Shown here: positions 24,980 to 59,293 of the stretch, piece after piece
How the letters are laid out: every line of letters begins with the position of its first letter
Position numbering within the stretch: the first letter of the stretch is position 1
Assembly (NCBI RefSeq): GCF_024521635.1
Contig: NW_026250406.1
Coordinates: forward strand, 496,001 to 560,000
Length of the DNA stretch: 64,000 bases
Origin: Tricharina praecox
Lineage: Eukaryota
Reading direction: 5' to 3'
Made by a program: the position numbers and the translations under genes
The notes under the pieces: generated by a model
Seen by the model: the letters and a program-made list of their open reading frames with translations, nothing else
The model's database searches: none
What the model was told of the DNA's origin: nothing

Positions 24980-25087
24980 GGAAGGAGATGAAGGAGATGA
25001 AGGAGATGAAGGAGATGAAGGAGATGAAGGAGATGAAGGAGATGAAGGAGATGAAGGAGATGAAGGAGATGAAGGAGATGAAGGAGA
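24980..25087. repeat. Perfect (GAAGGAGAT)n 9-bp microsatellite, about 11-12 copies
   Basis: Directly visible; the paralogous site at ~29250-29308 has a shorter, imperfect GAAGGAGAG tract. Confidence 0.95.
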
Positions 25088-27400: not shown

Positions 27401-27461
27401 CTGGTTAAACGGCATAACTATTGGCAGGTTTAGCTGACCCATCGACCAAAACCCCCCCCTG

Positions 27462-33151: not shown

Positions 33152-35812
33152 GCGAGATGAGAAGTAGGGTTTGTCTTGTGAATCCTATGCTAGAATTTTT
33201 GCTATGCATTCTGATCGGTGGGGGATAAGTGGAGGCTGGGAGGCTGGGAGGCGGGGAGATAGCAGAGATTGGGAGGAGGGTCACTTATCGAATATGGCTA
33301 TCCATATTGGATACAGTGGCTGGACTAATTGTGATAATGTAATTGCTCGCATTGGTATCTTCGCACAGTGATTTCTGTTCATATTCTCCAGATCATCGAA
33401 GACGCACACCTGGGATATATACTGTTTGAGATCTAGAGTTTCTAAAGTAGAGGGAGCCGATACTTATCGTCAGACAGAACGCTTCTGCCGAAGAGCTAGA
33501 AGATCTGTTCCCGCAGCCCAGAGAAAGATAAATGCGTGTGATACATCATGTCACGGGTGTACCCGCTATATTGGAAAATCGAGGCTTCGAGCAATGTGGA
33601 GCAGTTTCCCATAGCTCCGCTGAGGGAGAGCTATCGTGGGATGCACAGACGTGTTAGGCTAGATGTCGGTGTTTTGCTTTTTTGTGTTGAGCATTCTTCG
33701 CCTGGTTTTTCTGGTCACAGCAGCCCATGTATCTCCGCTGCCGCCTGTTCCCCCATAACAACTTGACATCAGCCTCATCGACATGCTCTAGACAACTGGC
33801 TATCTCGCTGGTACAGTGTAGGTAGACCTCCATGTCATCCCTCCCCGATCCTGATCTTTCACCATCGAGTTTTCACACGTCATCGCTCGATGAGCGAGCA
33901 GCTTTGCATGCCTCGACGGCAGCGAGAAGCATCACTAACGACTCAAGGTGTGTCCTCCCCCTGTTCGTCTGTCTTCCTCCCCTTGTTCTGAGCCCACCAT
34001 CAATACCCTATCCCTCCTTCTCCCTTCTTCCTACTGTGGGACCCAGCGTAAACAACGCCTTGGCACGTCCGTTTCGACTTAGAGCTGCGAGCTTGAGTTG
34101 GACCGACTGTCAACAGCTTGTGAACAGACTGGGACCCGTCGCGACCTGCTCTGCTGGCAGGTATGACCGTGGGCAGAGAGATTCGTTTTGATTCGATTTG
34201 AGGGTGGCCATGGCAGATGCACGAGCGACGAAATTTCGCCGACCTGGCTACACCAGATTCGATCGGCAAAATTTTCGGAGAGCCCTTGTTTATAAAAGGC
34301 AGATCTCTCTCCTATGTCGGCCGGTTGTTTCTTTCCTCATCATCTTTCTCATCATCTTTCTCAACACTATTGTGATTGATTTCATTGATTTCATTTCTTT
34401 CCTACCTTTTCATCGTTGTTTGGTCTCGCCATTCAACTCACAAGCTTCTTGACGATCACCTGAAGAACTCAGGTGGCTCTTTTCTTCCATTTTCTTTTTC
34501 TCTCTTCTAAAACCCGCAGCAGAAAAGGAGGCCAAGATCACCTTACCTGCTGCGGGTTCTCTCGGTGCCCCTCTCACCGAAGTCGAGACAATCGATGCCA
34601 CCATCTCATCTCTTACTAAAGTTGCCTGATGATCCTCCCCGTCCACAGCCCTTCACTACCTTACCATCAATGCCCCTCTGTTCTCACCACAAATGACATG
34701 CCTCTTACCATTACCATCCTCTATATTTCTGTACATCCGATCCTGCACCATTCTACTACCCTCCCCTACAAATCTCTACAACTCTCTACAACTCCCACAC
34801 CCAATCCTGTACCGATCTACTACCCTTCTCTTCACCTCTCTCCCTTTTCTCTTTCCATCACGACCCCTCCATCCCCACGATTGCCCTTCTCTCGTACCGT
34901 CACCATCCTCCTGCTGACATCAATCTCTCCACTCCACCTCTCTACAACCGCCGCTCCCACAAAGTATGACCGCCACTATCATCCCCACCGTCTGCCTGCA
35001 CGCAGTCGTCCCGTCATCCTTCTCCCAGCGCCGCTCCAAATACATTTACTGCCCACTACAACGGAACATCGCTCGAGATCCATGGAGCCTACTCGCCCCA
35101 ATCGTCGCAAACTTGGCGGTCGAGGACAACGCTCGAAGTTCAACAATGCGGCGGCTCCTAGACCAGCCATCGTCAATTCAGCGGCCCCCGTCTAGGAGAT
35201 GGGGTGTGAGAAGAGCCACAATGGTGGCGAAGAAGCGAAGGAGATCGGCGAAGCGCAGGGGGAAGGGGTGGGAGAAGAGCCCCAATGGTGGCGAAGAAGA
35301 GAAGGAGGTGAAGCTGAGGAAGAAGATTCAAGAGGAGGACACAGAAGACGAGAAGACGAGATGTTGAGATGTTGAGATGTTGAGATGGTGATATGGTGAT
35401 ATGTGATAAGTTGAGATAATGAAATGTTGAGATGGTGGGCTGTTGGGATCATATCATTGTGGAGGAAATAAATGAATGGGAAGACGAGATAACAGAGATG
35501 ACAGGATGATGAATAGACGGATGAATGGAAGACAAACAGAGAGATGACGACGATGGAGGGGTGGTTCACTTATTGAATGTGGCTATGCATATTGTATTGA
35601 GTGGTTTGAAATAATTATGACAATGATTTGATTGCGCACATTAGATTCTCTACACAATCATTTCTGCTTATATTTTTCGAGCTCATCGGAGAAGTACAGT
35701 TTGAATTTCGACTACCTATTCCATATCTAGAGTTATCAGAAAGCCGACACATAGCTCGGGACCAAGAACCGCCCCACCGAAGAGCTAGAAGATCTTTTCT
35801 CGGCAGCGTATC

Positions 35813-36042
35813 TGTCAAATTTACTGAGCTAGTGGACCCGCTGGCGAGACTAGACAACAGAGAACATCTCCAGATACAGTTCGCATGACCGACACCAAAC
35901 AGCACCATGTTCTCCGCCGGATACCATTCGCACGACTCAGTCTTTCACTCCTTCGGAACAGTGCTCCTTTGAAACGTCACCATCGCCCTACAGCGGATAT
36001 GCGGAGAGATCCTTCATGTGCGCCTAAAGCCGCAATCGGACA
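35813..36042. mobile_element. Probable solo LTR inserted in block A
   Basis: TGTCAAA...CGGACA, 230 bp, absent from other block A copies. Flanks GTATC/GGACC look like a decayed TSD. Confidence 0.6.
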
Positions 36043-37349
36043 GGACCACATACATCTCGCAACCCAGAGAAAGATAGATACACGTGATACTTGATGATGC
36101 GGATGTACCTACTAAATACGAAAAATACAGTCTTCTAGCACTGTAAAGTACCTTGTTGAGCATCCTTCGGCCGTCGTTTCTGTTCCCAGCAGCGCCCACG
36201 TCTCTGCCGCCCCCCTCTTCCCCGATAGCAACTTGAGACTTGACATCAGCCTCGCCGACAATTTCCACACGGAATATACGACCGGTTATCGCATCAGCGC
36301 ATTGTACTCCCCCATGCCATCTGTCAGATAGAAAAAGATGTATTGGCAGATCGTTGTCTGGTTTTTACATTTTCGCCGGACCGGAGCTCCTCTATATACA
36401 GAATCTGGAGTCCTCCCATAGCATACAGACGACTGTGCGCGTTTATACATTCTCTGCCCGCATTGCTTCTGTCTGCCAGCATTGCTGCTGTCTACCAACA
36501 TTGCTGCGGTGTTCATCGGCCGCTTCCAGACGTTCAAACTCCAACACCATCCGTCCAGACTCGGCACGTTCCTGATCGTTCATCATCGAGTTCGCGCTTT
36601 GAAGATTAAAGCCGGAGGCTACATCACTGACATTTCGTCTTAACACGTGGAAGATGCATCGATGGTGGGACATACGAGTATCTTGATAGCTGTTGAAAGT
36701 GGTATCGATGTTGAAGTTGATAGGTGCACTGGAAGGTAGGAAGGAAGGTTACCGAGGTTCTGTTGGCAACGTAGGTGGAAGAATGTGTCGGAAATATTGC
36801 GATGTAAGATGGGATAATGTATTAAGAAAACGATGAGGCAAAACTAGATAGACAGCTGGCTTGGTGCGAGAACAGACAATACCGTCCATCAAAATGACGG
36901 ATAGCACGGAGTTAGTACTACTATCCCGACCCCCAGAAGGAGTAGATAAAGCTGAATTAGCCTCTTCCGATCCGCCGTGACTATGTAAAACACTGGTGGT
37001 GTGGTTCTCGGGCAGCATTCGCACGTCATCGCTCGATGGGCGACTGTTTGCGTGCTTCCGCGGCAGCGGCAAGCCGCTCTAACGACTCGACTGTAATTCA
37101 GTTGCAAGCACCGCTTGCGTTATTTCAACGACGTCACCCTCCCCCCTTTCTATATCCTCCTCCTTCTTCCTAACCAGCCATCAACATTCTCTCTCCCCTT
37201 CTTCCTTCCTCCTACCCCACCATCGACATCCTCTCTCTCTTTCTCTCTTCTTCCTACTCTACCATCACCGCCCCTCCATCCTCACGACAACTCTTTTATC
37301 TCTCACCATGAAATCCCTCATCTCTCTACAACCACCGCTCCCCGAAAGT

Positions 37350-37781
37350 ATGGCCGCCACAACCATCCCCACGAGTACACGGCCAGCCTGGCATTACACT
37401 CCAGCGTCGCTCCCAATACATTTCCTGCCCACTACAACGGTACGGCCCTCGAGGCCCCCAGAGCCTAGTCGCCCCTCGAGGGCGTTACCGACTAGCAGCC
37501 CCTTGACATCATGTCCGCCCTTCTCGCCCTACTCGCCGCCAATTTGGCGGTCGAGGATCGATGCCCTGTTGGATGACACAAACGTCGATCGCATTATCGA
37601 TTGCGTAGTCGGGGTGATGAGTACGCAGGAAGCGGTCACTGAACCCACCGCGGACGAGCAGGAGATCCAAGAGGCAGATCTTTCAGAATCCCTCCAGCTT
37701 GTGGAAGAGTTGGAAAACACTGGTCAAATGGCAGACCACCCGGATCATCAGGAAAACAATATTATCCGTTGGGGCGTGTAG
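37350..37781 (+). CDS. Hypothetical protein, open copy of the MAATIIPT family with acidic C-terminal domain (143 aa)
   Basis: ATG in AGTATGG context after a TATA-like/CT-rich leader. C-terminus IDALLDDTNVDRIIDCVVGVMSTQEAVTEPTADEQE has paralogs at ~41500 and ~57265 with mostly conservative substitutions. Confidence 0.4.
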   Translation: MAATTIPTSTRPAWHYTPASLPIHFLPTTTVRPSRPPEPSRPSRALPTSSPLTSCPPFSPYSPPIWRSRIDALLDDTNVDRIIDCVVGVMSTQEAVTEPTADEQEIQEADLSESLQLVEELENTGQMADHPDHQENNIIRWGV

Positions 37782-39019
37782 ACGGTCCTGACTCTGGTCA
37801 CGCTGGGAATACTAAGGCGCTATTGCACATTAAAAATGACTGTCATCTCCAGTATGAACGACAAATGCCCAGTCTATTTCGTATATGATTGGAAACACAG
37901 AAACCGTCTGCGTTACCTATTGTTGGAGTAGGTAGTCAATCATCCAGAAATTTCTACTGTGCACGGTGTTTACGAGTAGGCGATATATCCTGCGTATTTC
38001 AGAATATTTATTCTGTTCCTATTTGTACTATATACTCCTCATAGACTATCCACATGCATCATGATTTGGGCTAATAAACCCATCCTCTTCCTCCTCCCAA
38101 TCCCCGCTTTCCTCTCCCTCATCCATTTCCTCCCCTCCTCCTCCGCGCATCCCAGCGGGCACATGCTCCTCTTCTAGGCCTGCAAGGTACAAAGGAAGGA
38201 GAAGGTATCAACGAAAAGACACTCGGAGAGTAGCAGTATGTACGGAGCACGAGGTATGGAGGGAGATGGCGTTATCGAGGAAAACGGCGGTATCGAAGGA
38301 GGAGGCTGTCTGGAGGGAGGAGGCTGTCTAGAAGGAGGAGGCTGTATCGAAGGACGAGGCTGTGTTTATTGAGCAGACAATATCAGCGACAGTTCTGGCA
38401 ATACGAGTAGCAGTGGAGAACGAGGGCGAAATGCAGGTGGTGAACGAGGGCGAGGTGAAGGTCGTACCGGTCTCTTGGGGCGGCCGTCTCAATCGGCTGC
38501 GCTGCCAACAGTTTGGCAGTCCTTTGGGGAGCCGGTATGATCGAACCGTTGGTATAGGGAGTGCGGTGTGTGGATTTGTGGAGTAGCGAGTGTGGGGAGG
38601 ACTGATGTTGAAAGTTAGAGAAAGCAATCAAGGTTGCGCTGCCACTGGCATTATATATCATCATTTTCCTCAGAGGCGTGCGTGTGTGAGTATGAGGTCG
38701 GACTGATGGCTAGTGCTGTGGCAAGTGCTGTGGCGAGAGCTGATAAACCTAAAGAACCCCACACACTTCGCCACGCGTAGTCTCCGTCGTCTTCCAAGCT
38801 AATTCTAGAACCCATGGTGACGTCAGCATGGCGCGATCCAAAGCTTAACAGCCAACTATCATGTGTAGCAAGAACCATATTCGTCTATCACCTATCATGC
38901 CAAAGCAATGTCGCGGGCCGGTGTCCCCAACCAACTATGAACATATTGGAAGCGACGAGATGACGCCACAGCTGAGTTGACGGCGCTGACACCTTGACCG
39001 CACCGATGAGTCAAGGGAG

Positions 39020-40860
39020 TGGCCTAGTCAAGAGCGAGAGCGCGGAAGAGTTCAGGGAGCAAGACAAGGCTCCGGAAGAGCGACAGTACGGAAGAGACGG
39101 GAAAGCACGTCGTCGGCAGGGAAGAGTAGACGGCACAGAGGTGTTGACGGTACAGACGAGTTGACGCCACGGAAGAGTGACGGAACGAGCCAGTCAAGGG
39201 CAAGGATGGTGCAAGGGCACGTCAATGGTGGGGAGGGGTTGCGGGAGCAAAACAGTTGAGGGAGCACGTCACGCAAGAATGGAGGCAGCACGTCGAGGAC
39301 ATTTCCGAGTTGACGGAGCCGGCGAGTTGGCGGCACCTCCGAGTCGATAGGACGAAAGCCGCGGAAGAGCCCAGCGAGCAAGGCAAAGGAGCGGAAGATT
39401 GGGGGAACGGGCCAGTCAAGAGCACGGCTGGGGAAGAGTCGAGGGAACCGGTCAGTTAAGCGCGAGGTAGGGCGAGGCCGGCGGAGTGTCTAGGGACTTA
39501 GGGAGCACGGTAAGGCCGTACAAGAGTCAAGGGAATAGGGTTGTAAAGGGCGAGGTAGGGCGAGGCCGGCGAGGATAGGGAAGATTTTGTGGATCACCTA
39601 GTCAAGGGCGAGGCTTGGTAAGAGTTGGGGGAACTTTCCAAGGTTGCGGAAGAGCCCAATGAGCGCGGGAAAAGCTGGGGAATAGTTGCGGGAATGGCTA
39701 GTCAAGGGTGAGGTTGGGGAAGAGTTTAGGTAACGGTCATTCAAGGGCGAGTCTGGGGAAGAGTTGAGGCAACATAATAAGGTTACAGAAGAGCCCAGAC
39801 AGCCAGGGCGAGGCCGCGGAAAAGGTGTTCGAACAGCTAATCAAGGAGGGCGACAGGAAGAGAGAGCGAGGCAGGGGAAGAGTTGTGGGGACGGGCGTGT
39901 CAAGAGTGATGCAGGGCGAGGCCGGCGAAGAGACCAGGGAGCACGGCGAGGCCGCAGAAGAGTCGAGGGAACAGGCCGGTCACGGGCGAGGCCGGTGAAG
40001 AGGCCAGGCAGCACGTCGAGGGCGTGCAAGGATTATGAGCGCAAGGCGAGGCTGAGGAACAGTCAAGAGCGAGAGCGTGGAAGAATGGTGGGAATATTTC
40101 GAGGTCGCGGAACAGCCCAGGGAGTGAGGGCGAGGCTCGGGAAGAGTCGGGTGGCGGCAGAGTTGTGGGAACGGGCCACTTGAGCTACAGAGAGAAAGAA
40201 AATTCTTTTCTATATTATTGAAACACTGAAGCTCGCTATGGTGCTGCTTTACACACTTTTTTTACGATTTTTTCGTGGGCATTGTGTTCCGTTGGTTGAT
40301 AAGTAAATTTTTAGTTGGTGTTTTAGTGACGAGTCAATCTAATTGAGTGGTAGGTCACTTGATTTTAGTGATGAGTTTTAATGACAAGTCACCAGGTGTG
40401 CGTAAAGCGAGTCAGTAACTTTTATGACTCAATCGCAAGTTTCACTCATGTGGTCTGCGCTGTTGGCAACGCGGGACTGGAGAAAAATCGGCGGGGGCGA
40501 GGCAGGCGCGGGCGCGGAGGAGTCGAGGGAACGGGCCAGTCAAGAGCAAGGCGGGGTGAGGCCGGCGAAGAGCCCAGGGAGCATGGGGAGGGTGCGAAAG
40601 AGTCGAGGGAACGGGCCAGTGAAGGGCGATGCCGGGGAAGATTTGTGGGAATGGGCCAGTGAAGGGGAAGGCTGGGGTGGATTTGTGAGAGCAAGGCCAG
40701 GCTGGGGAAGAGCCGAGGGGACGGGCCGGCCGAGGGCGAGGCAGCGCAATGCTGGGGGAGAGTTGTTGGAAGGGGCGGGTCCAGGGCAATGCTGGGGAAG
40801 AGATGTGGCAACGGGCCAGTCAAGGGCGAGGCTGGGGGAAAGTTGTGGGAGCGGACGGGG
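39020..40860. repeat. Purine-rich complex minisatellite (core GGGAACGGGCCAGTCAAGGGCGAGGCTGGGGAAGAG), interrupted by a T-rich segment ~40190-40470
   Basis: Many degenerate copies of the core are visible on both sides of the interruption. Confidence 0.85.
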
Positions 40861-41397
40861 TGAAGATACTACCATTTTCCAGATAGGTCACATGCAAGCA
40901 ATGAATAACACAAAACTAACACTGATTTCTGGGTATGATGTTTCGCCCAGTAGCGTTCCAACGGACGTTAGAACACCCTACCACAGCTGACGTCGTTCCC
41001 AGGGAATACGCTGGCGTGGGTCCGTTCACATGCTTCCACCCCAGGTGACCGTTCCCAGAGAATACGGTGGCGTGGGTCAGTTCACACGCTTCCAATTCAC
41101 TCGACGTGCCGAACGTCGCAAGTTTAGAGAATTTCTTTTCCTATGATGGAGGCGGCTCGGACCACTAATCACCTATGGCGAGTTTCAACGATGGCTGGAC
41201 AGACCGATTGGGGCGAATTCTTAGGTACGCAATCTGAGCACTCCCACACGTTTACTTGGGAAAAACCGCTGATGTGAATGCAGTTTTTGTTTTTCTGTTT
41301 TTGTTTTTTCTGTGTGGTTCTGGGAGCGAAACACCAAACCCGCAGAACTGACGAGTTACCTCCGAATCAGCGAGCCATTAGTTCGCACGCAATACGG

Positions 41398-41740
41398 CGG
41401 TTCCTCGCCCTGCCTACCGCAAACTTGGCGGTCAAAGACGAGTGCCGCACCTAATGCGGCGGTTCCTGGCCCTGCTCGCTGCCAACTTGGCGGTTGAAGA
41501 TCGACGCGCTGTTGGATGACGAAAACATCAATCGCATTATCGAATGCGTAGTCAGCGTGATGGATACGTAGGAAGCGGTCACCGAACCCACCGCGGACGA
41601 GCAGGAGAATCAAGAGGAAGATCTTTCAGAGTTCCTCCGGCTTCTGGAAGAGTCAGAAAATGCCGATCCCACGCCAGACCACCCGGATGGAGACCACTTT
41701 TGGAGATCTGATGACTTGTTGCGACATGTTTCGTTCGAAG
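41398..41740 (+). pseudogene. Acidic-domain segment, near-identical to 57163-57505
   Basis: IDALLDDENINRIIECVVSVMDT*EAVTEPTADEQENQEEDLSEFLRLLEES; the same TAG stop is present in both copies. Confidence 0.65.
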
Positions 41741-42603
41741 AAGTTGGATGGTTTCTTTGGTACGCAGTCTGAGCACTCACTGAATCTTACTGGGGAATAA
41801 CAGCTGATGGAAACGCAGTTTTTGATTTTTTGATTTTGATTTTTTAATTTTGATTTTGTTTGTTTTTGATTTTCTGATTTTCTGATTTTGATTTTTCTGT
41901 TTGTTTCTGGGTGCTGAACACCACAACCAGCCATTGGCTAGCACGCAATGCGGTGGTTTCTCGCATTACCAGCCGACGATTTGGCGGTTAAGGACGAACG
42001 CCGCACCTAATGCGGTGGTTCCCGTCTAGCAGACGGGGTGCGAACAGAGCAAAGCGGTGGCGGAGAGGAGAAGAATCTGTTGCAAGATGAGGAGGAAGAG
42101 GAGGACACCTCCTCTTACGAAGATGTCTCCGCCGAGGAAGGCTCCATGGATTGATTTGGAGGATGAAGGCTCGGATGACGTAGGAGAGACGAGAAGACGA
42201 GAAGGAGGTGTACGACGAGGACGGGGAGGGGTGGAAGGGCGGCAGGATGGTCAGGATGAGGACGATGCATAGCAAAGATTGGGAGGAGAGTTACCTATTG
42301 AATGTGGCTGTGCATAGTGGATAGAGTGGTTTGACCTGATTATGATAATCATTTAATTCTCACATTTGTATCGCTGCACAATCATCTCTGTTCATAGTTT
42401 TCCATTTCATTCAAGACACACACCTGGGAATGTTGGATATCGACTACTAAAGATCTAGAGTTCCCAAAGAGCCAATACATAGCTCGAAAGCGAGAACGCC
42501 CCTGCCGAAGATCTAGAGTAGAGGATGTTTTTGTCCGATCATCACAGCATTTGACCTTATCAGATTATGGCTGGACACACGTCTGGTTCCATCGCACTGT
42601 CTC

Positions 42604-42776
42604 TGTCACGATGACGGAGTCTCGTAGACGGGAACGTAGTGGATGAAGAGAATGATAGAGTTCTAGCTAGCTACAGGAAACGACTATATACCGTAGCTAG
42701 CTACGCTGAGTAGCCATACCGAGTGATCTCTCATACTCCGCGGGAACCCACACCCTCTACAGGGGTTTGGATGACA
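42604..42776. mobile_element. Solo LTR, 173 bp
   Basis: TGTCACG...GATGACA with perfect TSD GTCTC at 42599-42603 and 42777-42781. Nested in a larger insertion (~42518-43048) that splits block A. Confidence 0.85.
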
Positions 42777-45700
42777 GTCTCCGACCGCTGATCTCGAGCT
42801 CGATGTGGGTGCATTTTAGGCTCCGCCCGGCCCATCCGCACATAGAAAGAGAGACAGAGAGAAAGATGAAAAAATAAGATAGTGAAGAAAAAAACCTACC
42901 GAAGCTTGACGCAGTGACGGGTGGGCAGCCGAACTCGAGTTGACTCGTCACTCGTTTGTCACTCATGCGTCCGTAGTCACCACGAATATCAGAGGCTCTG
43001 ACCTCTTCAGGCAACAGGCAACGAGAAGGCTGTCGAGGCGAGAACTTCATCTCTTCCCGGCAGCGGATAGGGTACATCTCACAGCCCAGAGAAAGATCGA
43101 TACAGGTGATAAATGTTGTCTTTGATGTAACTGCTAAATATGGAAATCGAGGGTTTGTGCACTGTAAGGTACTCTCTAAATAATTCTGCTGAGGTAGTGC
43201 TTCCGTGCGATACACAGAGTTACTGGCTAGATGTCGGTGTTTTTAGGTGGGACATCCTTCGGCCCGCTTTTCTGTTCACAGCAGCTCGCAGGTGTCCACT
43301 GCCGCCTGTTCTCCCTAGCAACTTGGGCTCAGCCTCGCCGACATGCTGTGGACGACTGGCTACCTTGCCGGTGCAGTGTAGGTTATCTCCCATGTCATCA
43401 TCCGTCCTCCCTCCTGGTTGTCACCATCGGGTTTTCACACGTCATCGCTCAATGAGTGAGTAGCATTGCATGCCTCGACGGCAGCGACAAGCATCACTGG
43501 GATTCCCCCTTCTCCTTACTGTGGGACCCAACGAAAACGACGCCTTGGCGAGGGGGGTTCAACCCGGATCTGCAGACCTGGGTGTGACGGACAGCTACAA
43601 TTTGTAAACGTGCTGGGACCCAGTGGGACCAGCCGCGATGGCCTCTGTTACTATGGGCGGACGACAGCCTCACCGACATGCTCTGGAAGACTAGCTATCT
43701 TGCCGACGCAGTGTAGGTGGGTAGTCTTCCATGCCATCCGTCCCCGCTGCTGGCCTTTCACCATCAGGTTTTCACGTCATCGCTCGATGCGCGAGTAACA
43801 TTGCGTGCCTCGACGGCAGTGACAAGCATCGCTAGTCTTCCCCCTTTTCGCATTGTGGGACTCAGCGAAAACGACACCTTGGCGAGGGGGGTTCAACCCG
43901 GACCCGCTGACCTGGGTGAGACGGACAACTAAACAGTTGCGATGGGTTCTGTTAATATGGGCGGAGGGTGTTGTTTTGATTCGATTTGAGAGCGGGCAGG
44001 ATCGATGCACGAGCGGCGAACTTTAGCCGACCTGGATGATATATTGTCGGCCGGTCTGTCTGTCTATTTCCTTATCCCCCCCACTGTCAATATCTTTCTC
44101 ATTATCGCTTTTCATCGTTTTCGTTTTTCGGTCTCGCTATGCAACTTGCAAGATTCTCGACGGACACCTGAACAACACAGGTGTACAGTTTTCTTCAATT
44201 GTCGTTCTTCTCTTTCCCTTTCTTCCTACCCTACTTTCAAATTCTCCTCCCTTCTCCCATCGTTTTGGTACCCAACTATCAGTCATCCTCCGATTACCTC
44301 CTACCGCTCCACACAACAAAAATTCTCGCCATCCACCACCCCTCAGCGCTAACGGCAACTCTCATGGCGATCATGTGATCTCTTTGCATCACCACCCTCC
44401 CCCGTCTCTACTGTCCTCTTTCCACACATCTCTGCATACCTCTGCTCCCAGAAAGTATGTCCGCCACAATCATCGCCGCCTGCACACCGGCCACTCTGTC
44501 CCCATCGCCACCCCCAAGTCGACTACGGCGTACTCCACGAGTCCGGCCCTCGAGGCCCTTACATCGGACATCGATCTCCACAGCGTATTGGCGCTTCTGG
44601 GCCTACTCCCCGCCGATTCGGAGGTTGAACATGAGGATCATGCGGTTTACAATGCGGCGGCTCCATCATGGTCTACAATTCACCGGTTTAGCGGTCCAAG
44701 ATCAAGCTCACACTGCCGGTAATGCGACGGCTCCAACGTGGTTTTATAACTCACTGTTTGGCGGTCGAAGATGAAGCCCAGACTGCCGGTAATGCGGCGT
44801 CTCTCGCCCAGGAACCGGATTAAACGAGAAGCAGAATGGGGGCGTTGAGGAGAAGAGTCGGTGGAGATATGAGGAGGAAGAGTAGGATTCATCCTCTTAC
44901 GAAGAAATCTGCGACGACCATTCGGAAAAACGAGCAGAGGAGTAGAAGAAAGGGGGAGGAGGGGAGGAAGGGAGGAGAAGAGGAGGGGAGGAGAAGAGGA
45001 GATGGTGCGATGGAGAGACGATGAGACGATAAGATGTTGAGATCATGAATCAAATAATGAATGGGAAGACGAGATGAAGAGATGATGAATGTTAAATAGA
45101 TAAATGAATGGGAAGACGAGGAAGGACATGAGGAAGATGTAGGGGAGGAAGGGGAGGAGGCGGGCTACCTGTTGAATTTGGCTATGTATATTGGATAGAG
45201 TAGCGTGACCTATTTATGATAATGATTAAATTGCTCCGATTGGTGTCTACGCACAGTCCTTCCTGCTCATAGTTTTCAAGTTTATTGAAGACGCACACCT
45301 TGGATTGTAAGGTACTCTCTCATAATGGCGCTAATGGAGGGCTTCCGTAAGATACACACAGTTACTGGCTAGATGTCGGTGTTTGTGGGTGGTGCATCTT
45401 TCCCCCGGCTTTTCTGTTCACAGCAGCTGGCAGATGTCCGCCGCCGCTTGTTCGGCCCCTACAGCTTGACCTCAGCCTCGCCGACATGCTTTACCTTGAG
45501 TGGACAACTGGCTATCGGTAGCCAGGCGTCGGTGCCATTTGGCCACCCCATCCGTGCACGATCTCAATGTTTCATCATCGAAGTTTCACACGTCATCGCT
45601 CGATGAGTGCGAAACATTGCATGTCTTCAAAACGGCAGCGACAGGCATGACTAGCGACGCAACCGTGATTTGGTTCCAAGCACCACGTGAATTGTTTCCA

Positions 45701-47449: not shown

Positions 47450-48420
47450 TACGAGTATCTTCATATCTATTGAAAACGGTCTCGATGTTAATATTGACAA
47501 GTGCACCGGAAGGAACGATTCAGCTGCCTACAGGAGTGGTGTCTGCAAGACTGCAACGTAGGTGGAAGTATGTGTTAGAAATATAGTGACGTAAGGTAAG
47601 ATAATGTATTCACACCACGCCGAGGTAATGGATAGAGAGTTAGCTTGGTGCGAAGAGAGGAAGACCCGTCTAGGAAAATGACGGACGGGATCGACTACTC
47701 TGATGCTGATCCCCTAGAAGTAGTGGACAAACCTGGCTGGTCTCGTCCGATCCGTCAGGAAAATGCAGAACACCGGTGCGGTGGTTCTAAGAGTGAGAGA
47801 TATCGATGTACTTCGCATGCAGCCTGTCTGGACTATGTCGAGCCGTCGCACTGTTTTCCTATCCACGCTGGCTGGCCGGACGTTGCGACCCCCCTACCGG
47901 CCAACAAGATGTGGCTCCGCTGCCTACCAAAAATAAAATAAAATAAAAATAAAAAATTACATAGCAAATCAGACCAGTATATGTTTCGCACCAGGAACAG
48001 ACAATCACATATCGTTGGCCCTCACCTCCCTGCAGAGGCCGCAGACACAGAGTCCTGCTGGAAACTTTTGTTCTTCTCGGAATGCTTCCCTCCCCTGCTC
48101 CTCCTTCTCCTCCTCCTCCACCTACAGGTCTGACGGAGCTGTCCTCGCTACGTCCGTCGTTCGTAGGAACGAGTCTAGGCTCGCATCGCTGTATCGCTGC
48201 ACCGCTCATCGGCGAACAGCTCCGCTGTGGACCATCTCTCCTGCCTTCTCTTTGTCTGATTCCCAGTCACCTTCACCCACACGGCTTTCCGCTGGCTTCT
48301 TCGCCGTTAGCATTGTTTTCACAAGTGCTCTCGTCATTGCTTCGTTGACCTGTTGCCGTACCAGCAGTGATCATTATCTTCGGTTCCTGACCTACTTCAG
48401 GTACGTAGCGCAGAGGGCGT
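47450..48420. repeat. Block D, ~950 bp, duplicated at ~53590-54520; partial copies at ~36672-37010 and ~56095-56245
   Basis: Shared TACGAGTATCTT, GACTATGTCGAGCCGTCGCACT, A-rich tract and an identical core CACCTACAGGTCTGACGGAGCTGTCCTCGCTACGTCCGTCGTTCGTAGGAACGAGTCTAGGCTCGCATCGCTG. Confidence 0.9.
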
Positions 48421-49813
48421 GACCCGGGGTGCTGTGGTTCTCGGGCAGCGCTTCACACGTCATCCATCGATGAGCGAGTAACATTGCCTGCCTCGACAGC
48501 AGCAACGAGCATCACCAAAGACTGAACGGCGACCAGATCCAAGCACCCCGTTGGTTCATTGATACAAAGTCTCCCCCCCCCCCCCCCGCCTTTTCTATAT
48601 ATACCTCCTCCTTCTTCTCCACCCACCACCATCTTCCTCTCTCTCCTCCCCTTTTCTTCCTTAACTACTATCAGCATCCTCTCCCTCCCTCCCACTCTTC
48701 GTACCCCACCATCATTCATACCATAACCTCCCACCTCTCAACCAGCGCTCCACCACCCGTCTATCCTCTCCACAACCCCCTCATCTCTTACCATCACTAT
48801 CCACCACCTCACTACAACCCCGATCCCGTCCCTCTCAACTACCCTGATTCTACATCTCTCTGTAACCCCCGCTCTCAGAAAGTATGGCCGCCACTATCAC
48901 TCCTACCCACACACAGCCTTCCGGTCATCCTTTTGCCAGCGCCACCTCCAAGACGACTACGCTCCATTCCAAAAGCACACACATCGAGGCCGTTCCGGCC
49001 CAGCTCCACCTGGTCATGTCCGCCCTCCCAGCGCTACTTGCCACCAACCTGGCTGTCGACTATCGATGGTTCGCATGTGATGCGGCGGTTTCTGGCCCTA
49101 CTCGGCGTCGATTTAACGGTTGAAGACGACACTCGCACCCAATGCTGCGCTTCCTCGGTCTCCTGAGCCGACTCGCCGCCGTTTCGACGGCCGAACATGA
49201 GCACCTGACCGTTTAAACTGCGGCTGCTCCTAGGCCCGCCCCCAACCAGTTTGGCGGTCGAGGAAAACGCCCGATATTCGACAATACGGCCATTGCCGCA
49301 CAGGAGGTGAGGGCATACCAGAACCACCAGGGTGGAGATGGAGCGGGAAAAATCTGGTGAAAGATGGGGAGGAAGAGTAGGATACATCCTCCTACGAAGA
49401 CGTGTCCGAGGACAGTTTGGAAAGACGGTTGGACGAGGAAGCCTCGGACAACGAGGACCAAGACGCGTCAGATGACGGCGGGAAGACGAAAAGAGAAGAC
49501 GAGACTGGATGTTTTTCGAAAGAGACTGAATTCGAAGGTTGAGGGTATGAGGCGGCAGCGATTCGAGAGGATGATGTATGAATGAATGTGAAGACGAGAT
49601 GATGGGATGTTGAGATGATCAATGATGAATAGATGAATGAATGGGAAGATGAGCAAGTAGATGAGGACGATGGAGGGGAGGAAGGGGAGCAGGATGGTGA
49701 GGAGGAGGAGGAAGAGGAGGAGGAGGAGGTTTACCTGTTGAATGTGGCTATGCATATTGGATAGAGTGGCTCGACCTATTTACGATAATGATTTGATTTT
49801 TCGCTCTGGTACC

Positions 49814-50039
49814 TGTAATTGTGATGCGTCCGCAATGTGGCTATGACGCTCGCAGCGATGCTGGCATTCCACAGCAATGCTGACAGAGAATTTATCAGCG
49901 CGCCGGCTCGTCATCGGTATGCTATCATGACCTTTGGGAGGGATTCGAGGTTCTGTAGATATACTGGAGGACTTCCGTTGCGCTGACATTGCGCAGTGAT
50001 TAAACATATTAAGCATTTGAGATTCTCTTCTAGTTGACA
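49814..50039. mobile_element. Probable solo LTR inserted in block A
   Basis: TGTAAT...TTGACA, 226 bp, flanked by GTACC/GTATC (one mismatch). Other copies read GGTATCT without interruption. Confidence 0.7.
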
Positions 50040-51869
50040 GTATCTCCGCACAGTCATTCCTATTCACAGTTCTCCAGTTCATTGAAGACACACACCTTGG
50101 ATATTAACTGTTCGAGATCTACAGTTCTCAGAGAGTCGATACACAGCTCGAGAGCCAAATCGCAGAATTCTCCCGTCGAAGAGCTGGAAGATAACTCCTC
50201 CTCACATCAGATCAAATACACGATACATCCTGCAGCTTAGAGAAAGATAAATAGAGGTGAAGAACGCTGTCTCGGATGTAGCTGCTCAAATAGGGAAACC
50301 GAGGCTTCGTGCACTGTAAGATACTCTCTCATAATTCCGATGAGAGAGACGTTTCGTGAGATACACAGAGCTGCTGGCTAGATATCGGTGTTTCTGGGTG
50401 GGACATCCTTCGTCTGGCTTTTGTATTCGCAACAGCCCTGGGGTCACTGCCGCCGCCTATTCCCCCTAGCCACTTCAGCTCAGCCTCGCCGACATGCTCT
50501 GGACGACTGGCTACCTTGCCGGTACAGTGTAGGTTATCTCCCAGGTCATCATCCGTCCTCCCTCCTGGTTTTCACCATCGGGTTTTCACACGTCATCGCC
50601 CGATGAGTGAGTGGCATTGCATGCCTCGACAGCAGCGACTCCAAGCATCACTAGGCTTCCCCCTTCTTCGTACTGCGGGACCCAGTGAAAACGACGCCTT
50701 GGCGAGGCCGTTTCAACCCGGAGCTGCAGACGTGGGTGAGACGGACAGCAAGGATTAGTAAACCTGCTGGGACCCGGTGGGACCAGCTGCGATGGGCTCT
50801 GTTAATCTAGGCAGAGGGTGTTGTTTTGATTCAACCTGAGAGCGGGCAGGATTGATGCAGGAGCGGCGAAATTTAGCCGACCTGGACTATATATTGTCGG
50901 CCGGTCTGTCTGTCCGTTTCCTGATCATCATCATCATCATAGACCTCATCTCCCTCACTGTCATTATCTTTCTCATTATCTCATTTCATCGATTTCGTTT
51001 TTCAGTCTCGCTAGGCAACTTGCAAGGTTCTCGAGGGACACCTGAATAACACAGGTGTCTGGTTTTCTTCTATTGTCGTGCTTCTCTATTCTAAAATACA
51101 ATCGGTCTATCGTTCCTCCCAACCTTGCCGAGAGGTAGGTTCACGTTCCGAATGCTTCAGTACCCACCCATCAATCATCTTACGATAACCTCCGTCGTCC
51201 TACCCTACTTTCAATTTCTCTTCTCCTCCTGCATCTTCCTACCGTACCTTTAACTTCTCCTCCCTTCCTACAAATATTTCGTACCCAACCATCGATCAAT
51301 CTACGATAACCTTCTACCACTTCGAACGAGACCACTCCTCTCCTCTTCACTCCACTCCACTCCACACAACAAAGATCCCTGGCATCACGCTAACCGAAAC
51401 TCTCATGAGGAATCCTTCTCTCTTCCTCCCTCACTACCCTTCACATCTCGACTACTTCTTTCCACACCTCCCTCTATACCCCTGGTCCCGGGAAGTATGG
51501 CCGCCACAATCATCCCCGCCTGCACCTCGATCATACTCTTCCCATCGCCATCCCCAAGACGACTACGCGGTACTCCACGACTCCGGCCCTCGACGCCGTT
51601 ACAGACATCCTTCTCTACGTCGTGTTGGCCCTCCTAGGCAGGCTCCCCACCAAGTTGGCGGTCGAACATGAGGATCGTGCTGTATACAATGCAGCGGCTC
51701 CTGGTTCTACAACCCCTTATTTTGGCGGTCGAAGATGAAGCTCACACTGCCGATAATGGGGCGGCTATAGTCCAGGAAATGAGCTGAACGAAGAACAAGG
51801 CTAGTGGGGAGGAGAGGAATCAGTTGAGATATGAGGAGGAAGAGGAGGAGAGGAGGAAAGAACAGAGGA

Positions 51870-51940
51870 ACAGAGGAGGAGAGGAGGAGAGGAGGAGAGG
51901 AGGAGAGGAGGAGAGGAGGAGAGGAGGAGAGGAGGAGAGG
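51870..51940. repeat. (GAGGAGGA)n 8-bp microsatellite followed by GATGAGAT-type repeats
   Basis: Directly visible. Confidence 0.9.
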
Positions 51941-54900
51941 GGATGTTGCGATGTTGAGATGATGAGATGGTGAGATGTTTAGATGATGAGATGTAGAGGT
52001 TTTAAGATGATGAGATGATGAGATGATGAGATGACGAGATGATGAATAGACGAATGAATGGATGACGAGCAGGATGATGATGACGATGGAGGGGAGGAGG
52101 AGGGTTACCTATCTATGATAATGATTAAATTGCTCAGATTGGTATCTACGCGGCACAGTCATTCCTATTCATGATTTTCCAGTTTATTGAAGACGCACAC
52201 CTTGGTGATCGACTATTCAGTGTTGTAGATGATCTGTAATTCCCAGGCAGTCGAAAAATACTTCTTGAGAGTCTGCGCGCCCGAGTTGAACAACTAGGTA
52301 GAAGATCTCTTCCCGGCAGCGGATGATTTGGTGTTTGTTCATTATTGATTGCATGCGACCTATCCTCTAGCTGCCATCGAGATGCCCCCTCTTGTTGCCA
52401 TGGAGATGCCCCTATCGCTGCTGTGGAGCAGTACTGGCTGCGCTGTGAATGTTCCCCTCCCTCTTGCTTCTAATCGTGCTAATTTCCATGCTTCTAGTCC
52501 TGCTGGAGCGACTCTACTCCCGCCGCAATCCGTACTCCCCCTCCCCCGCAACTACTACTGCCGCTAATAGCACCCCCGTCCTATAGCTCTCTTCGCCGCC
52601 ACTACTATTCCCACTCCAGCCACAATTGCTATTCCTCCTCCTGCCACCACTGCTGCTCTCGCTGATGCTTCTCTCCCACAGCTCTACCCTCCCCGCCGCA
52701 GCTCTGCCCTCGCCGCCACTGCTATTTTCCCTCCCGCCGCCACTGCTACCCTCAATGATAGCTTCTCTCTCATAGCGTTTCTCGGCGGAACTCTCCTCTC
52801 GGTGCAACTCTACTCTGGCTGCAAATCTACCCTCGCTGATAGCTTTTCTCTCATAGTTTTTCTAGCAGCAACTCTATTCTCCATTCCCCTCGGCGCAATA
52901 CATCCACTGGGCACAGGCTAGAAAGAATATTAAATAGTGAAGGAATTAGATAGAATACTAGATAAAAATTCAATGCGAGACACACTAGATTACTGCATAC
53001 AAACCGGCCCGTAGTGATGTAAAATCAGGATTCACCCCGGTACTACTATGAGAGTTGTGCAAAGACGCATTCATTTGAAAGCCAGCATTCATTTGAACAC
53101 CAGCATGCTGCCATAGCGGTCTAGAAAGTTTATGAGCTTTGTGTGAAGACGCATTCATTTGAATGCCAGCATACTGCCATAGCAAGACCCAAATCAAAGA
53201 ACAGGATGATTCACATCTATCGGTACCGACGTGGCAATGCGCATTACTTTTCTCAGTATAATCATTTTTTGGCCGTAAAGATTCCGCTGTTTTTAGATTG
53301 CCTCCAATAATTCTTCTGTCGTCTGGCTCTGGTACCGCCTCCATACCGATCAGCCCTGGTTGTTTACCACTGTATGCTATTCCATTCTCCTCCAGCCATA
53401 TATGACTGAAACCTCTGTCTAAACCCGGCTTCGTTGTGGAAAGTTGAAACACATCTCGAACCGTAGAGCCGTCGCTGGCACTGGTAGTTAGTGATTCATT
53501 TTCCACAACTGCGCGGGGAGTCTGACTTCCGGGCACTTTAGCGAATATTCGTCTCCTTAACACATGGGCGAGGCATCAATGGAGGGAGATACGAGTATCT
53601 TGACAGCTGTTGAAACTTGAAGGTGGTTTCGATGTTGAGGTTGATAGATAGACTGGAAGGATGGAAACGGGAGTGTTGTCTTCAGCGTGCCCTTCAAACA
53701 ACGATGAGGTCAGACATGGAGACTAGATACATATCTCGGTTAGTAACAAAAGAGAAAGCCACGTCCAGCAAAATGACAGACAGGGCAGGCTACTCGGAAG
53801 GAGGGGACAGAACTGGACTGCTCTAATCCGATCTGTCCGGACTATGTAGAGCACTGGTGCTGTGGTTCCAAGAGAGGTTGAGATCTTGGGAATATTTCGC
53901 ATGCGGCCTATCTCGACTATGTCGAGCCGTCGCACTCCTTTCCTGCCAGCTATGGCCGTTCGGAGGTTGTGACGCCCTCTGCCGGCCAGCACGATGTGGC
54001 GCCGCTGCCTTCCAAAAATAAATATACCAAAAATAAATAAAAAATAAAACATTACATAGGACATCGAACCAGTACTACATGTTCGCACTCAGATCCAATC
54101 ACCAAGTGTCGTCGCTCCTCACCTCCCTGCAGAGGCTGCAGACACAGAGTCCTGCTGGACACTTTGGTTCTACTCGGGATGCTTCCCTCCCCTACTCCTC
54201 CTCCTCCTCCTCCTCCTCCACCTACAGGTCTGACGGAGCTGTCCTCGCTACGTCCGTCGTTCGTAGGAACGAGTCTAGGCTCGCATCGCTGAATCGTTGC
54301 ACCGCTACATCGCTGCACCGCTAATCGGCGAACAGCTCCGCTGTGGACCATCTTTCCTGCCTTCTTTTTGTCTGCTTCCCAGCCTTCGTCCACACGGCTT
54401 TCTGCTGGCATCTCCGCTGTTGGCACTGTTTGCACAAGTGCTTTCGTGACTGCTTGGTTGGTTTGTTTCACCACCAGCAGTGATCATCAACTCCGGTTCT
54501 TGACCTGATTGAGGTACATAGCGCTGCCGGTGTGACACGTGGCGGTGCCGTTCGCAGGCAGCACTTCGCACGTCATCGTTCGATGGGCGAATGATTGCAT
54601 GCTTCGACGGCAGTGACAACACCACTAACGACTCAACGGCGACTCAGTACCATGCACGGCGTGGGTTAATTCAACGCAGTCGCTGCTCCCCCCCTTTCTA
54701 TATATCTTCCTCCTCCTTCTTCCTTCAGTACCAACCATCAACGTTCTCACTCTCCTTCTCCCTTCTTCCTACTCCACTATTAACCTCTTCTCCCACCCTC
54801 CTCCTTCTTCGTACTCAACCTTCAATCATCTTACGATAACCTCCTTCTTCCTACTACCCTACTTCCAACTTCTCTTCCCTTCGTCTCTCTTCTTCGTACC

Positions 54901-57162
54901 CCACTATCAATCATCTTGATAACCTCCTATCGCGCCATGCAACTGAAGATGCCAGCCATCCACCACCCCTCCATCCTCACCGCAACTCTCATGACAACCC
55001 CTTTGTCTCTTACTATCACCTTCTTCCACCTTTAAAACTCCGATTCTCCGCTTCTCTACAGACTTCCAGTACTATAGAGCATGGCTGTCAATATCATCCC
55101 CACCCGACCCTCATCACGGCACTCTAATCATCCTACTCGCAACACCGTCCCCAAGATGGCTACGCCCTGCTCCGCGAGGCCGGCCATGGAGGCCTCCACC
55201 GCTTATGTGCCCTCGCCATTTTGGCCCCCCTGGCCCTGCTCGCCGGCAATTTGGCGGTCAACGAAGACGCTCGTACCCAATGCGGCGGCTCCTGGCCCTG
55301 ACCCCCGGCAATTTGGCAGTCAAAGAAGACGAACGAAATCATGTCTTACGAAGACGACGGAGGATACTTCGAAACCAGCCGCAAAACCACATATTAGGAG
55401 GACGACGGAGGATATCTTGAAGCAACCTTCTATGAAGACGGCGCAGGATGCCTCCTCCGTCGAAGACGCATCCGAGGAAGACTCCGAGGATATACTCGGA
55501 GGAGGAAGTTTTGGGAAACGAAGATAAGGACGACTCGGACGACTACGGGAAAAGGAGCTTCAGACTTCCGTCTGGAGTGGGTGGAGCTGGGAACTACTAA
55601 GGGTGGTAACCAAGGCAACAACGGAAAGAATATCCAGGGAATCCAAGTGCAAGCCGTCAACAACCAGCAGCAAGGACGAGAAGATGAATAATCAATGGGT
55701 GGAAGGACGAGATGACGAGATGATGGGATGATGAGATGATGAGATGATGAATGATGAATGAATTGGAAGAGGACATTATGACATGTTGCGATGATGAATG
55801 ATTAATGAATGGGAAGACGAGATGGGAGATGAGGGCGAGGAAGAGAAGAACGGAGAGGAGGCTGCTGAGGGTGCTGTTTTTTTCTTCTTTCAATTTTATT
55901 CCAGATAGGGTACTTTAACTGCATCCTGAATGACTTGGTATTCTTCCGAGCTCGTCGTGACGCAATATATCCCAGGCTCGTAGCCAGCCAGTGCTGTACA
56001 TATTCCACTTCAGCCCAAACGCACCCCACCTATTTGCCCCGTTCATCGGCGAGAAACTTCACTGTTGACATCCCTCCGTACTCCTCTTTGCCTGCTTCCG
56101 AAGTTCCCAACCGTCGCCCACATGGCTTTCTGCTGGCGTCTTCACCATGAGTAGTTTTCGATTAGGTGCTCTCGTAATCGCGTTGTTAGTCTGTTCAACC
56201 ACCAGCACTGATCAACATATCGCTTCTTGATCCACTTTTGGTACGTATTTGTAAGAGCGTACCCCGTCTTCGGTCGATACAAGCGGTCAGCGAGCCTTTC
56301 TGGCGCTTTGGGTGGGCGCGGATCGGGTGTCTTTTTGGGGCACCGCTTAGTGTCGTATCCGGGATTTTGAATCCCGCATAATGACCGTTGATGCGCCTCT
56401 GTCTATTGCTCGTCGCTCATCCACCTCTTGAGAAGCACCAGTGAGCCCGGAAGATGTACGCCACGCTGGCGTCCATATCCGCCATCTTGCCAGAGCAGTT
56501 CTACTCCATCGCCGTCAGGAGTTTCCGCCGCGAGTTTGTTGCACTCGTCTAGTATTTCATTTCTCAGTGTGGTTCTCGGGCAGCACTTTATACGTCATCG
56601 CTTGATCAGCGAGTCACGTTGCATCCCTCAACGGCAGCGACAAGCCGCACAAACACTCAACGGTGATTTAGCCCTAAGCACCGCGTCGGTTATTTCGACG
56701 AAGTTTCTTCCTCCCCCCTTTCTTTCCTCCTACTTCTTCCGTACTCACCATCATCTTCCTCTCTCTTCTTCCCCCTTCTTCCTACTCTACCACTAACTTC
56801 CTCTCTTTCCTCGTCCCTTCTCCCTACTTTACCATCAACTTCCTCTCTCTCCTTCTCCCTTCTTCTTACTTTACCATCAACACCCCTCCATCCACACGAC
56901 AACTCTTTCATTTCTCACCACCACCCTCCTCTAAGTGTCAAGATCCTGCATCTCTTTACAACCCCCGCTCCCCCTGGCCATGTTGACCCTCCTCGACTTA
57001 TTCGCCGCCAATTTGGCGGCCGAGGCTGCCGGCCATAGCGACGACTGTCTTGAGCACGCACTGAATTTTACTTGTGAACAACAGCTGATCTAAATGCAGA
57101 TTTTTTCTTTGCGTTTCTATGAGTGGAACACCACAGCGAGCCATTGCTTCGCACGCAGTGCG

Positions 57163-57505
57163 GCGGTTCCTCGCCCTGCCCACCGCAAACTTGGCAGTCG
57201 AAGACGAGCGCCACACCCAATGCGGCGGTTCCTGGCCCTGCTCGCCGCCAACTTGGCGGTTGAAGATCGACGCGCTGTTGGATGACGAAAACATCAATCG
57301 CATTATCGAATGCGTAGTCAGCGTGATGGATACGTAGGAAGCGGTCACCGAACCCACCGCGGACGAGCAGGAGAATCAAGAGGAAGATCTTTCAGAGTTC
57401 CTGCGGCTTCTGGAAGAGTCAGAAAATGCCGATCCCACGCTAGACCACCCGGATGGACACCACTTTTGAAGATCTGATGACTTGTTGCGACATGTTTCGT
57501 TTGAA
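57163..57505 (+). pseudogene. Acidic-domain segment, near-identical to 41398-41740
   Basis: About 12 differences over ~340 bp by hand count; shared premature TAG. Confidence 0.65.
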
Positions 57506-59293
57506 GAATTTGGTACGCTGTCTGAGCACTCACTGAATCTTTTTGTGAACAACAGCTGATCGAAATGCAGATTTTTCTGTTTCTTTCTACCGTCGAAATA
57601 TCACCGCCGATTTTGAGATTTTTTTTTGGTACGCAATCTGAGCACTCACTGAATTTTACTGGGGAACAACCGCTGATGTAAATGCAGTTTTTGTTTTTGT
57701 TTTTGTTTTTGTTTTTTTGGTTGTTTCTGCGAGCTGAACACCATAGCGGAAGCCTCCTTCGAAGCACACTCGATCCGCTTCAACGTGTCAATGAACCTTC
57801 TCAATGCGCAAATGAGAAGACGAGAAGGTGAGAAGATGAGAAGACGAGAAGGAAGGTGAAGACGATGGTGAGGAGGAAGGGGAGCAGGATGGTGGGGATG
57901 AGGACGGTGAGGAGGCTGCTGAGGGTGCTGTTTTTTTTTATTTCAATTTTATCGCAGAAACTGCATCCTCAATGAATTTGTGTTCTTCCGAGCTCGTCGC
58001 GACCCAACAGATAGGAGGCTTGTAGCCGACCAGTGTTTTACATATTGCAGTGCAGCCCCGACTCTCCCGATCCATGGTCAGGACTACATTACAGACATCT
58101 AGTTCGTTCGGGGGTGACTGCTGGGCGGCCATGTCCACCGGTTTGCTCGACCGTCAGATGGGACGGGTTGCAGTCGACTGCAAAGAAGGGTAGAATATAG
58201 TACATCTGAAATGAAATCATACGGCGACATTTGTATGCATGCAAGAGGGAGAGCTCCTCTACGTCGTGTGCATAGTTTTAGCGGTAACAACTAAGTACTT
58301 ATCTAGGTATTCGAAGTATTCTCGGACAGCAGTCGACTACAATCCGCCCCCGTCCAGCAAAATGTCTGACTAGACGCGCTATTTTTATCGCTTCCTCCAA
58401 AACGGACGGGACTGGGGCCAAAATACATCACTCCGAAGTCCACTCCCCTACCGCGCCTAAATCCACATCCGGGGGGAAACTCTCAGCGGATATCTCCGAG
58501 AGCACAGCTAGGAATGTACCAGCGATCGAGACATGCGACAGGCACTCGGTAATCGTCTCACATGTGGCGACCGGGCCGACGGAAACTTCTCCAAGCATCC
58601 TGGTCGTAGTCCCCCAGCCCCGGTGAAGTTGAGTATGAACGGTAGGAAGCCCCCTGTCTCCATTGCCTCGATTGGCCTCGGCTGGTGAGCCCCAAATGAA
58701 AGCTTGTTGCGATTAAGATTGTTTCTCTTCCGCAGCGATCCGCAGGTACAAGAATGTCCTTGACTGGACCACGATCCCGCGATTACTTGCATTTCCATGT
58801 AAAAGAGTGATAAGGAGGGAAGATGTAGAAAAACTGCTGTTTCACATCTGGCATGTTACCGGGCGCTGCTTATAATACCCCTGTATCCTTTGGGAATGAG
58901 AACAGCGAGGAAGATGGCGGGCTTCCTATTTCTGTGGCCGGAAGTCATTAAGCTACTCTTTGTACCTGCATTCTATGTATGTACTCAAATATCGGAAAAA
59001 CTCTATGGGTCAATCCAATCTTTTTACTGGGCGCGCAGGGCGGCAACACCCGAATTGACCGAATACTGCCAGGTTCATGGTACATCACACCATGTGCATC
59101 TCATCTTACCTCAGCACTGCCCTCCGGCAGACGACGCCATCCCCGATCGAGCGCAACTCTACGCTGCGCCTGCCCAACCCCACCACCACGCAAATCAACG
59201 GCCATCCGCGAACTGCAGGGTTCGGGATTCCATAAATACTATTAGTACCTGTCTTCCGCGCGCGATCTACATTCTTCTCTATCAACATCATAT

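Follow-up and report, generated by a model that had tools for sequence, protein, structure and literature searches.

Macrosatellites and other complex tandem repeats of kilobase scale, such as human D4Z4, are built of head-to-tail kilobase units that vary through unequal exchange. The wtf meiotic drivers of fission yeast, the Spok drivers of Podospora and the het loci are defined by conserved coding genes with recognisable exons or domains, and Helitron-type arrays by the capture of gene fragments, a Rep/helicase, and 5' TC and 3' CTRR termini. A stretch of 64,000 nucleotides from Tricharina praecox (positions 496,001 to 560,000 of contig NW_026250406.1; hereafter the window) holds an array of about 25 kb that can be set beside each of these. 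We regard it, on balance, as probably a lineage-specific complex tandem repeat, a diverged macrosatellite, and not as a working two-gene cassette. With macrosatellites it shares kilobase head-to-tail units at a single euchromatic locus between ordinary genes, a modular make-up and embedded short repeats; it differs from them in having units that are old and poorly homogenised (65-85% identity, Kimura two-parameter (K2P) distance about 0.3), that measure 1.7-3.8 kb, and that contain no intact conserved open reading frame (ORF). As in tandem pseudogene arrays produced by unequal crossing-over, there is a single orientation, a gene-derived module and a common disabling mutation (a TAG shared by two copies); unlike in such arrays, coding ancestry is limited to about 200 nt of a 2-3 kb unit in three of the nine units, and no parent gene is found for the rest. 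An initial annotation had likened the locus to wtf, Spok and het loci. The array is indeed multicopy and lineage-specific, with many decayed copies, but it lacks a conserved ORF, domain or codon-level constraint, and the analogy found no sequence, domain or structural support.

The repeat structure can be seen directly. The initial annotation described a same-orientation array of about 25 kb, and self-blastn together with nhmmer (three units as queries) confirms it, resolving 33.2-58.1 kb into eight units of 1.7-3.8 kb in the same orientation plus one remnant, called Mx. All self-blastn matches of at least 100 nt within the array lie on the plus diagonal, that is, head-to-tail; the only inverted matches come from low-complexity CT/GA sequence matching itself and from a 160-nt inverted patch in U6. 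The further block A reported near 63.6 kb is also present, outside the array, and is the only copy of unit sequence that nhmmer found in the remaining 39 kb of the window. The units and their parts are as follows.

33238-35550, plus strand: U1 (a-type), with block A, block C at 33859-33936, an extra segment of ~300 nt at 34021-34500, a CT-rich leader, the ATG motif at 34951-34976, and a GA-rich tail containing (GAGATGTT)n.
35551-38000, plus strand: U2 (b-type), with block A, block D at 36472-37008, block C at 37020, 42-nt CT-rich repeats, the ATG motif at 37335, and the sole uninterrupted acidic module (ORF 37347-37778).
38001-41190, no strand assigned: a 3.2-kb insert between U2 and Mx, unrelated to the unit.
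41191-42275, plus strand: the Mx remnant, with an acidic module bearing an in-frame TAG, hairpin-motif repeats and a tail; the gene model P0028 lies at 41191-42151.
42276-45149, plus strand: U3 (a-type), with a block A into which 555 nt have been inserted, two copies of block C (at 43436 and 43771), the extra segment, a leader, the ATG motif at 44442, 70-nt repeats and a tail.
45150-46808, plus strand: U4 (short), with block A, block C at 45587, a leader, ACG replacing the ATG (45953-45978), 90-nt repeats and a tail.
46809-49715, plus strand: U5 (b-type), with block A, block D at 47226-48430, block C at 48454, a leader, the ATG motif at 48869, and a tail ending in (GAG)n.
49716-52103, plus strand: U6 (a-type), with block A broken where 36368-36506 is copied in inverted orientation, block C at 50587, the extra segment, the ATG motif at 51482, and period-8 microsatellites.
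52104-55869, plus strand: U7 (b-type), with a truncated block A, a unique stretch at 52.3-53.3 kb, block D at 53311-54528, block C at 54567, a leader, a weak ATG motif near 55078 and a tail.
55870-58058, plus strand: U8, with a partial block D, block C at 56574-56651, 42-nt leader repeats, an acidic module with an in-frame TAG, and a tail.
63618-63995, plus strand: a solo block A on the far side of the GH75 chitosanase gene, heading to the window end.

The units are diverged and modular, as had been noted from the start. U2, U5 and U7 have block D, and U8 has part of it; the acidic module (60-74 aa) is present in U2, Mx and U8, and the extra segment in U1, U3 (where it is duplicated) and U6. 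The motifs they have in common are far from chance occurrences. Block A has a 5' core in seven copies, five of them within 3 mismatches of a 32-mer, where shuffled sequences lead one to expect none. Eight copies of block C and six of the ATG motif lie within 3 mismatches, all on the plus strand (shuffles give about none for either), and the block C of U8 is a ninth, weaker copy. A short palindrome, GCCAAnTTGGCGG, has 14 matches, again on the plus strand only and again with about none in shuffles. The insert between U2 and Mx has a repeat of its own, a G-rich minisatellite at ~39000-40900 with a period of ~40 nt (not a multiple of three) and at least 17 recognisable copies, whose ORFs gave no Pfam match.

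A short element of ~66-120 nt, with (TTTTTG)n or (TTTTGA)n after it, was also observed in five copies within Mx and U8. It was considered as a solo long terminal repeat (LTR) and rejected as too short.

41235-41300, 41770-41835, 57051-57116, 57522-57587 and 57639-57704: copies of the short element, inside Mx and U8.

In having at least three kilobase units, head-to-tail and in one orientation, the array is like a macrosatellite; the homogenisation typical of one is not seen, since identity between units stays at 65-85% and only local tracts reach 92-100%. The block A cores are 68-82% identical, with a mean K2P distance of 0.30 and a star-like pattern, and the solo block A is as diverged from the array copies as these are from one another. 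Sub-blocks differ in identity: Mx and U8 match at 92% over 456 nt, U3 and U6 at 84% over 593 nt, and the rest at about 70-80%. U3 and U6 align along the entire unit, U6 being nearest to U3 (68-84% identity), and the a-type units (U1, U3, U6) tend to alternate with the b-type units (U2, U5, U7). This alternation and the differing ages of the sub-blocks fit an old burst of tandem duplication, partly in two-unit blocks, followed by local duplication or conversion and long neutral decay. Amplification by unequal exchange, as first suggested, likewise fits the single orientation and the higher-order a/b pattern, and the view that the copies are decaying is supported. As for the cause of the divergence, the G+C content of the array is similar to that of its flanks; no CpG depletion, TpA signature or bias of the kind left by repeat-induced point mutation (RIP) sets the array apart from them; and the substitutions between copies comprise 1994 transitions and 1902 transversions. 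RIP or methylation decay was rejected as the cause, no CpG/TpA signature being seen relative to the flanks.

One tract departs from the general divergence. The 84 nt at 48108-48191 in U5 are 100% identical to their counterpart in U7, within a D block that is otherwise 45-89% identical, and are most simply explained as a conversion tract.

Lack of coding constraint is the second direct observation. Between copies, 4131 mismatches in 252 gap-free segments show no codon periodicity (chi-squared 440 on 504 degrees of freedom, p = 0.98), and six segments exceed a chi-squared of 6 where about 12 would be expected by chance. Because the window contains no coding paralogue pair that could serve as a natural positive control, power was checked on simulated segments of matching size, where a share of 42% for the third position was detected in 96% of runs. 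Only 72 of the 412 indels are multiples of three in length. The initial annotation had placed a minus-strand gene A and a plus-strand gene M in each unit, and neither can be upheld as a conserved protein. The longest ORFs (230-232 aa, formed of the CT-rich leader and the M start in U2, U3 and U5) occupy three different frames on homologous DNA; the M body is a tandem repeat with a period of 62, 70 or 90 nt according to the unit, the tail consists of period-8 microsatellites, and the periods of 8, 40, 62 and 70 nt that occur within the presumed ORF and tail cannot be divided by three. The minus-strand block A ORFs of U2 and U5 (A2 and A5) similarly lie in different frames on the same DNA. A5, the sole block A ORF searched, has no relatives among 5.8 billion proteins, and a word-based search with the M ORF of U2 (M2) matched only itself. 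A 20-nt block A pattern was found at three loci in metagenome contigs, where the match covers just the 20-22 nt of the seed, and these were rejected as chance.

Codon usage gives the same picture. A model trained on nine Pfam-supported ORFs (a small set of ~1580 codons) ranked the true frame first for all nine in a leave-one-out check and scored above 0.05 for eight. None of the 87 array ORFs of at least 90 aa scores above 0.1 (mean -0.06), the block A ORF scores negative, and the whole M ORFs score 0.04, 0.05, 0.00 and -0.12. Nor is the length of the frames unusual: the longest array ORF, of 232 aa, is equalled in 67-74 of 100 local shuffles that preserve dinucleotides. (These shuffles were used in place of mononucleotide local shuffles, which inflated the excess of ORFs, 87 against 58-62.) As previously noted, there is no trace of a transposase, reverse transcriptase or helicase; Pfam gave none of these in 137 ORFs of at least 80 aa across 32.4-64 kb, or in the 150 ORFs searched of the 190 array ORFs of 50-79 aa, and had no match of any kind within the array. 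One score fell below threshold, at 17.6 bits against a cut-off of 34.1.

The acidic module is the only part of the array that looks gene-derived. An exhaustive HMMER search with the M ORF of U2 returned, besides itself, two proteins, P0027 and P0028, both by way of this module. P0027 is a hypothetical protein of 345 aa from another contig of Tricharina praecox; its similarity to the array is confined to the C-terminal 60 residues, which are 57-59% identical to the modules of U2, Mx and U8. Its Atlas model is poor (predicted local distance difference test, pLDDT, 0.43), it has no family in Atlas, and an Atlas search with the acidic module gave no usable match; Pfam found no family at E values up to 1 in P0001, P0027 or P0028. 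The codon-usage score of the module, 0.18 per codon, is host-like and unlike that of the rest of M, and from these resemblances the module probably derives from a coding exon. Between the array copies, its mismatches fall almost evenly over the three codon positions (12/13/15). The modules of Mx and U8, 92% identical, have the same in-frame TAG, so that the module was duplicated after it had been disabled. P0028 is the public spliced plus-strand model on Mx, a hypothetical protein of 166 aa from Tricharina praecox; within 41191-42151 the window has 100% matches to three exons of the model (tblastn pieces suggest five exons in all), and one of its introns skips the in-frame TAG. It looks like an annotation artefact laid over a pseudogene.

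A diverged macrosatellite could have arisen as follows. Repeated tandem duplication and unequal exchange, partly in two-unit blocks, would have multiplied a segment of 2-3 kb head-to-tail, with later duplications of sub-blocks (U3/U6, part of U5/U7, and Mx/U8). The copies would then have drifted neutrally, gaining indels, inserts and the inverted patch, while the minisatellites inside them (42, 62-90 and 40 nt) and the period-8 microsatellites expanded. Most open frames would be a consequence of the strand-asymmetric CT-rich and GA-rich composition, and the acidic C-terminal module would have come from an exon related to the hypothetical protein elsewhere in the genome and continued to be copied after gaining its stop codon. 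We infer that the array has no present function.

Several observations weigh against this explanation. The array contains 87 ORFs of at least 90 aa where dinucleotide shuffles give 70-76 (standard deviation ~6; one or two of 100 shuffles reach 87); for scale, the genic left flank has 88 where its shuffles give 57-59. The ATG motif is retained in a good start context in six units, and ATG-initiated frames of 105-148 aa persist in four. The acidic module of U2 is still open, with host-like codon usage, and public annotation places a plus-strand gene model in the Mx remnant. The periodicity test, which had no natural positive control, would also lose strength if coding sequence made up no more than a small share of each unit. 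Finally, both the 84-nt identity between U5 and U7 and the strand-specific hairpin at the edge of block A (see below) could mark constrained elements.

Much of this would be expected if M alone were a living or recent lineage-specific gene family on the plus strand, coding for a disordered Pro/Ser/Thr-rich protein with an acidic C-terminus, in which the U2 copy (37347-37778) is alive, the other copies are pseudogenes and block A is a downstream or 3' region. The relationship of the acidic module to P0027 and its score of 0.18, the retained ATG contexts, the U2 ORF open for 144 aa, the public model in Mx, the hairpin that folds on the plus strand only and the slight excess of ORFs all point this way. 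We nevertheless think it unlikely. The acidic module is limited to three of nine units and its substitutions are not codon-structured; the part from the ATG to the module is a 62-, 70- or 90-nt minisatellite whose frame differs by unit; the codon usage of whole M ORFs, as scored above, is not that of the host; and the public model must splice round a stop codon to be read at all.

The limits of the unit bear on a different and more doubtful proposal, that the units are what remains of a non-autonomous mobile element which was inserted or replicated in tandem and carries a captured gene fragment (for example, a Helitron-like rolling-circle element, or one that targets its own tail). As with Helitron-type arrays, the orientation is uniform, a hairpin lies near the unit edge and a host gene fragment sits inside the repeat, here an exon-like fragment of a gene on another contig; the simple-repeat tail and the star-like divergence of the block A cores would fit as well. 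However, no inverted or direct repeat (terminal inverted repeat, LTR or target site duplication) was found to bound a unit, in agreement with the initial annotation, though decay could have erased short ones, and conservation continues smoothly from the tail into block A, so that no element end is defined. The ORFs searched against Pfam include no transposase, reverse transcriptase, integrase, Rep or helicase domain and no Rep/helicase remnant, and there is neither a conserved 5' TC nor a conserved 3' CTRR-type terminus after the hairpin (the alignment was judged by eye), the hairpin itself being AT-rich, of 21 bp, with G-T pairs. A mobile element might also be expected in dispersed copies, and the only copy in the window outside the array is the block A at 63.6 kb.

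The hairpin lies at the 5' edge of block A. It is imperfect, has 21 pairs and is present in all seven aligned copies, where 88% of cells are paired; sliding the partners lowers this to 26-46%.

49720-49780, plus strand: an example of the ~21-bp hairpin (others near 33270, 35555, 42280, 45154, 46813 and 63622).

As plus-strand RNA it would fold at -10 to -22.5 kcal/mol, and as minus-strand RNA at -2.7 to -4.8 kcal/mol, with z above 0; being rich in G-U pairs, it is predicted to fold only as plus-strand RNA. Four of the seven copies have a z of at most -2.0, with only 0-5 of 200 shuffles matching their stability. Folding on one predicted strand fits plus-strand transcription through block A without proving transcription. 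It is conceivable, but very improbable, that each unit is a non-coding transcription unit on the plus strand, with block C as a promoter box, the CT-rich region as the start and the terminal hairpin giving a small RNA or aiding 3' end formation. The pairing kept in every aligned copy, the difference in folding energy between strands, and the restriction of block C and the start motif to the plus strand and to the array would suit such a unit. Yet covariation in the hairpin is no better than in shuffles (one compensatory pair; 401-477 of 500 shuffles score as high), only four of seven copies fold better than most shuffles, Rfam has no family in the array, one arm of GCCAAnTTGGCGG varies without compensation, and in the U3/U6 pair the block A core is 74% identical where its neighbours are 84%. 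With no covariation in the hairpin, an uncompensated arm in GCCAAnTTGGCGG and a U3/U6 core no better conserved than its surroundings, selective constraint on these elements is not demonstrated. A variant, in which plus-strand non-coding or micro-ORF units with a palindromic promoter box, a CT-rich start and a hairpin yielding small RNAs would be kept in tandem by this Pezizomycete, seems to us slightly less credible again; if true, the plus-strand non-coding units would form a fungal small-RNA or silencing-related cluster.

Least probable is the original proposal of a head-to-head coding pair (A on the minus strand, M on the plus strand) with a common promoter at a locus of genetic conflict (a meiotic driver or het locus, for example), which would suit the multicopy, lineage-restricted, fast-decaying nature of the array and the position of block C between the two proposed starts, but for which there is no conserved frame, codon periodicity or host-like codon usage in A or M, no relative of A5 (the one block A ORF searched), no Pfam domain and no preference for indels in multiples of three, and whose gene A lies on the strand opposite to the one on which the block A hairpin folds. 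The initial annotation had named the absence of codon-structured substitution, taken jointly with an absence of transcription on either strand, as evidence that would count against the pair; the first half of this is what the chi-squared comparison of copies gives, transcription being the other half. The earlier interpretation as a whole is partly supported, and nothing found makes the locus a candidate driver or incompatibility locus.

Read as a diverged macrosatellite, the locus shows clearly what a kilobase tandem repeat in a Pezizomycete looks like when it is old and has not been homogenised, and could be used in studies of tandem-repeat turnover or of repeat-induced methylation in that class. 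It also carries a caution for annotation: long ORFs and ATG motifs can recur across strand-asymmetric CT-rich and GA-rich repeats without coding constraint, and automatic annotation can lay spliced gene models over them, as it did with P0028.

The surroundings of the array are those of ordinary fungal chromosomal DNA. It occupies 25 kb between a methyltransferase gene and a chitosanase gene, and Pfam identifies the following in the flanks.

3.6-5.5 kb, minus strand: P450 gene.
18.4-19.4 kb, plus strand: Sdh5 gene.
20.9-21.6 kb, minus strand: ORF with a CAP domain.
32.08-32.98 kb, plus strand: methyltransferase gene.
59.2-60.2 kb, plus strand: GH75 chitosanase gene.

The GH75 exon is 70-75% identical to Pezizomycete proteins, with Orbiliomycete proteins next. 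Left of the array, a long run of minus-strand ORFs (23.9-29.5 kb), in which Pfam has no match, contains paralogous stretches at 24600-25300 and 28200-29500 with 76-82% identity. A repeat of ~200 nt is present in three copies, one of them inverted (199-398, 23259-23453 and 27460-27654; 69-78% identity); unrelated to the array, it may represent a miniature inverted-repeat transposable element (MITE) or else a solo LTR. The only Rfam matches in the window are two tRNAs, both outside the array, at 3110-3197 (minus strand) and 11706-11790 (plus strand). They lie ~8.5 kb apart in opposite orientation and are 92% identical over 105 nt; ARAGORN calls only the one at 3110-3197, as tRNA-Asp.

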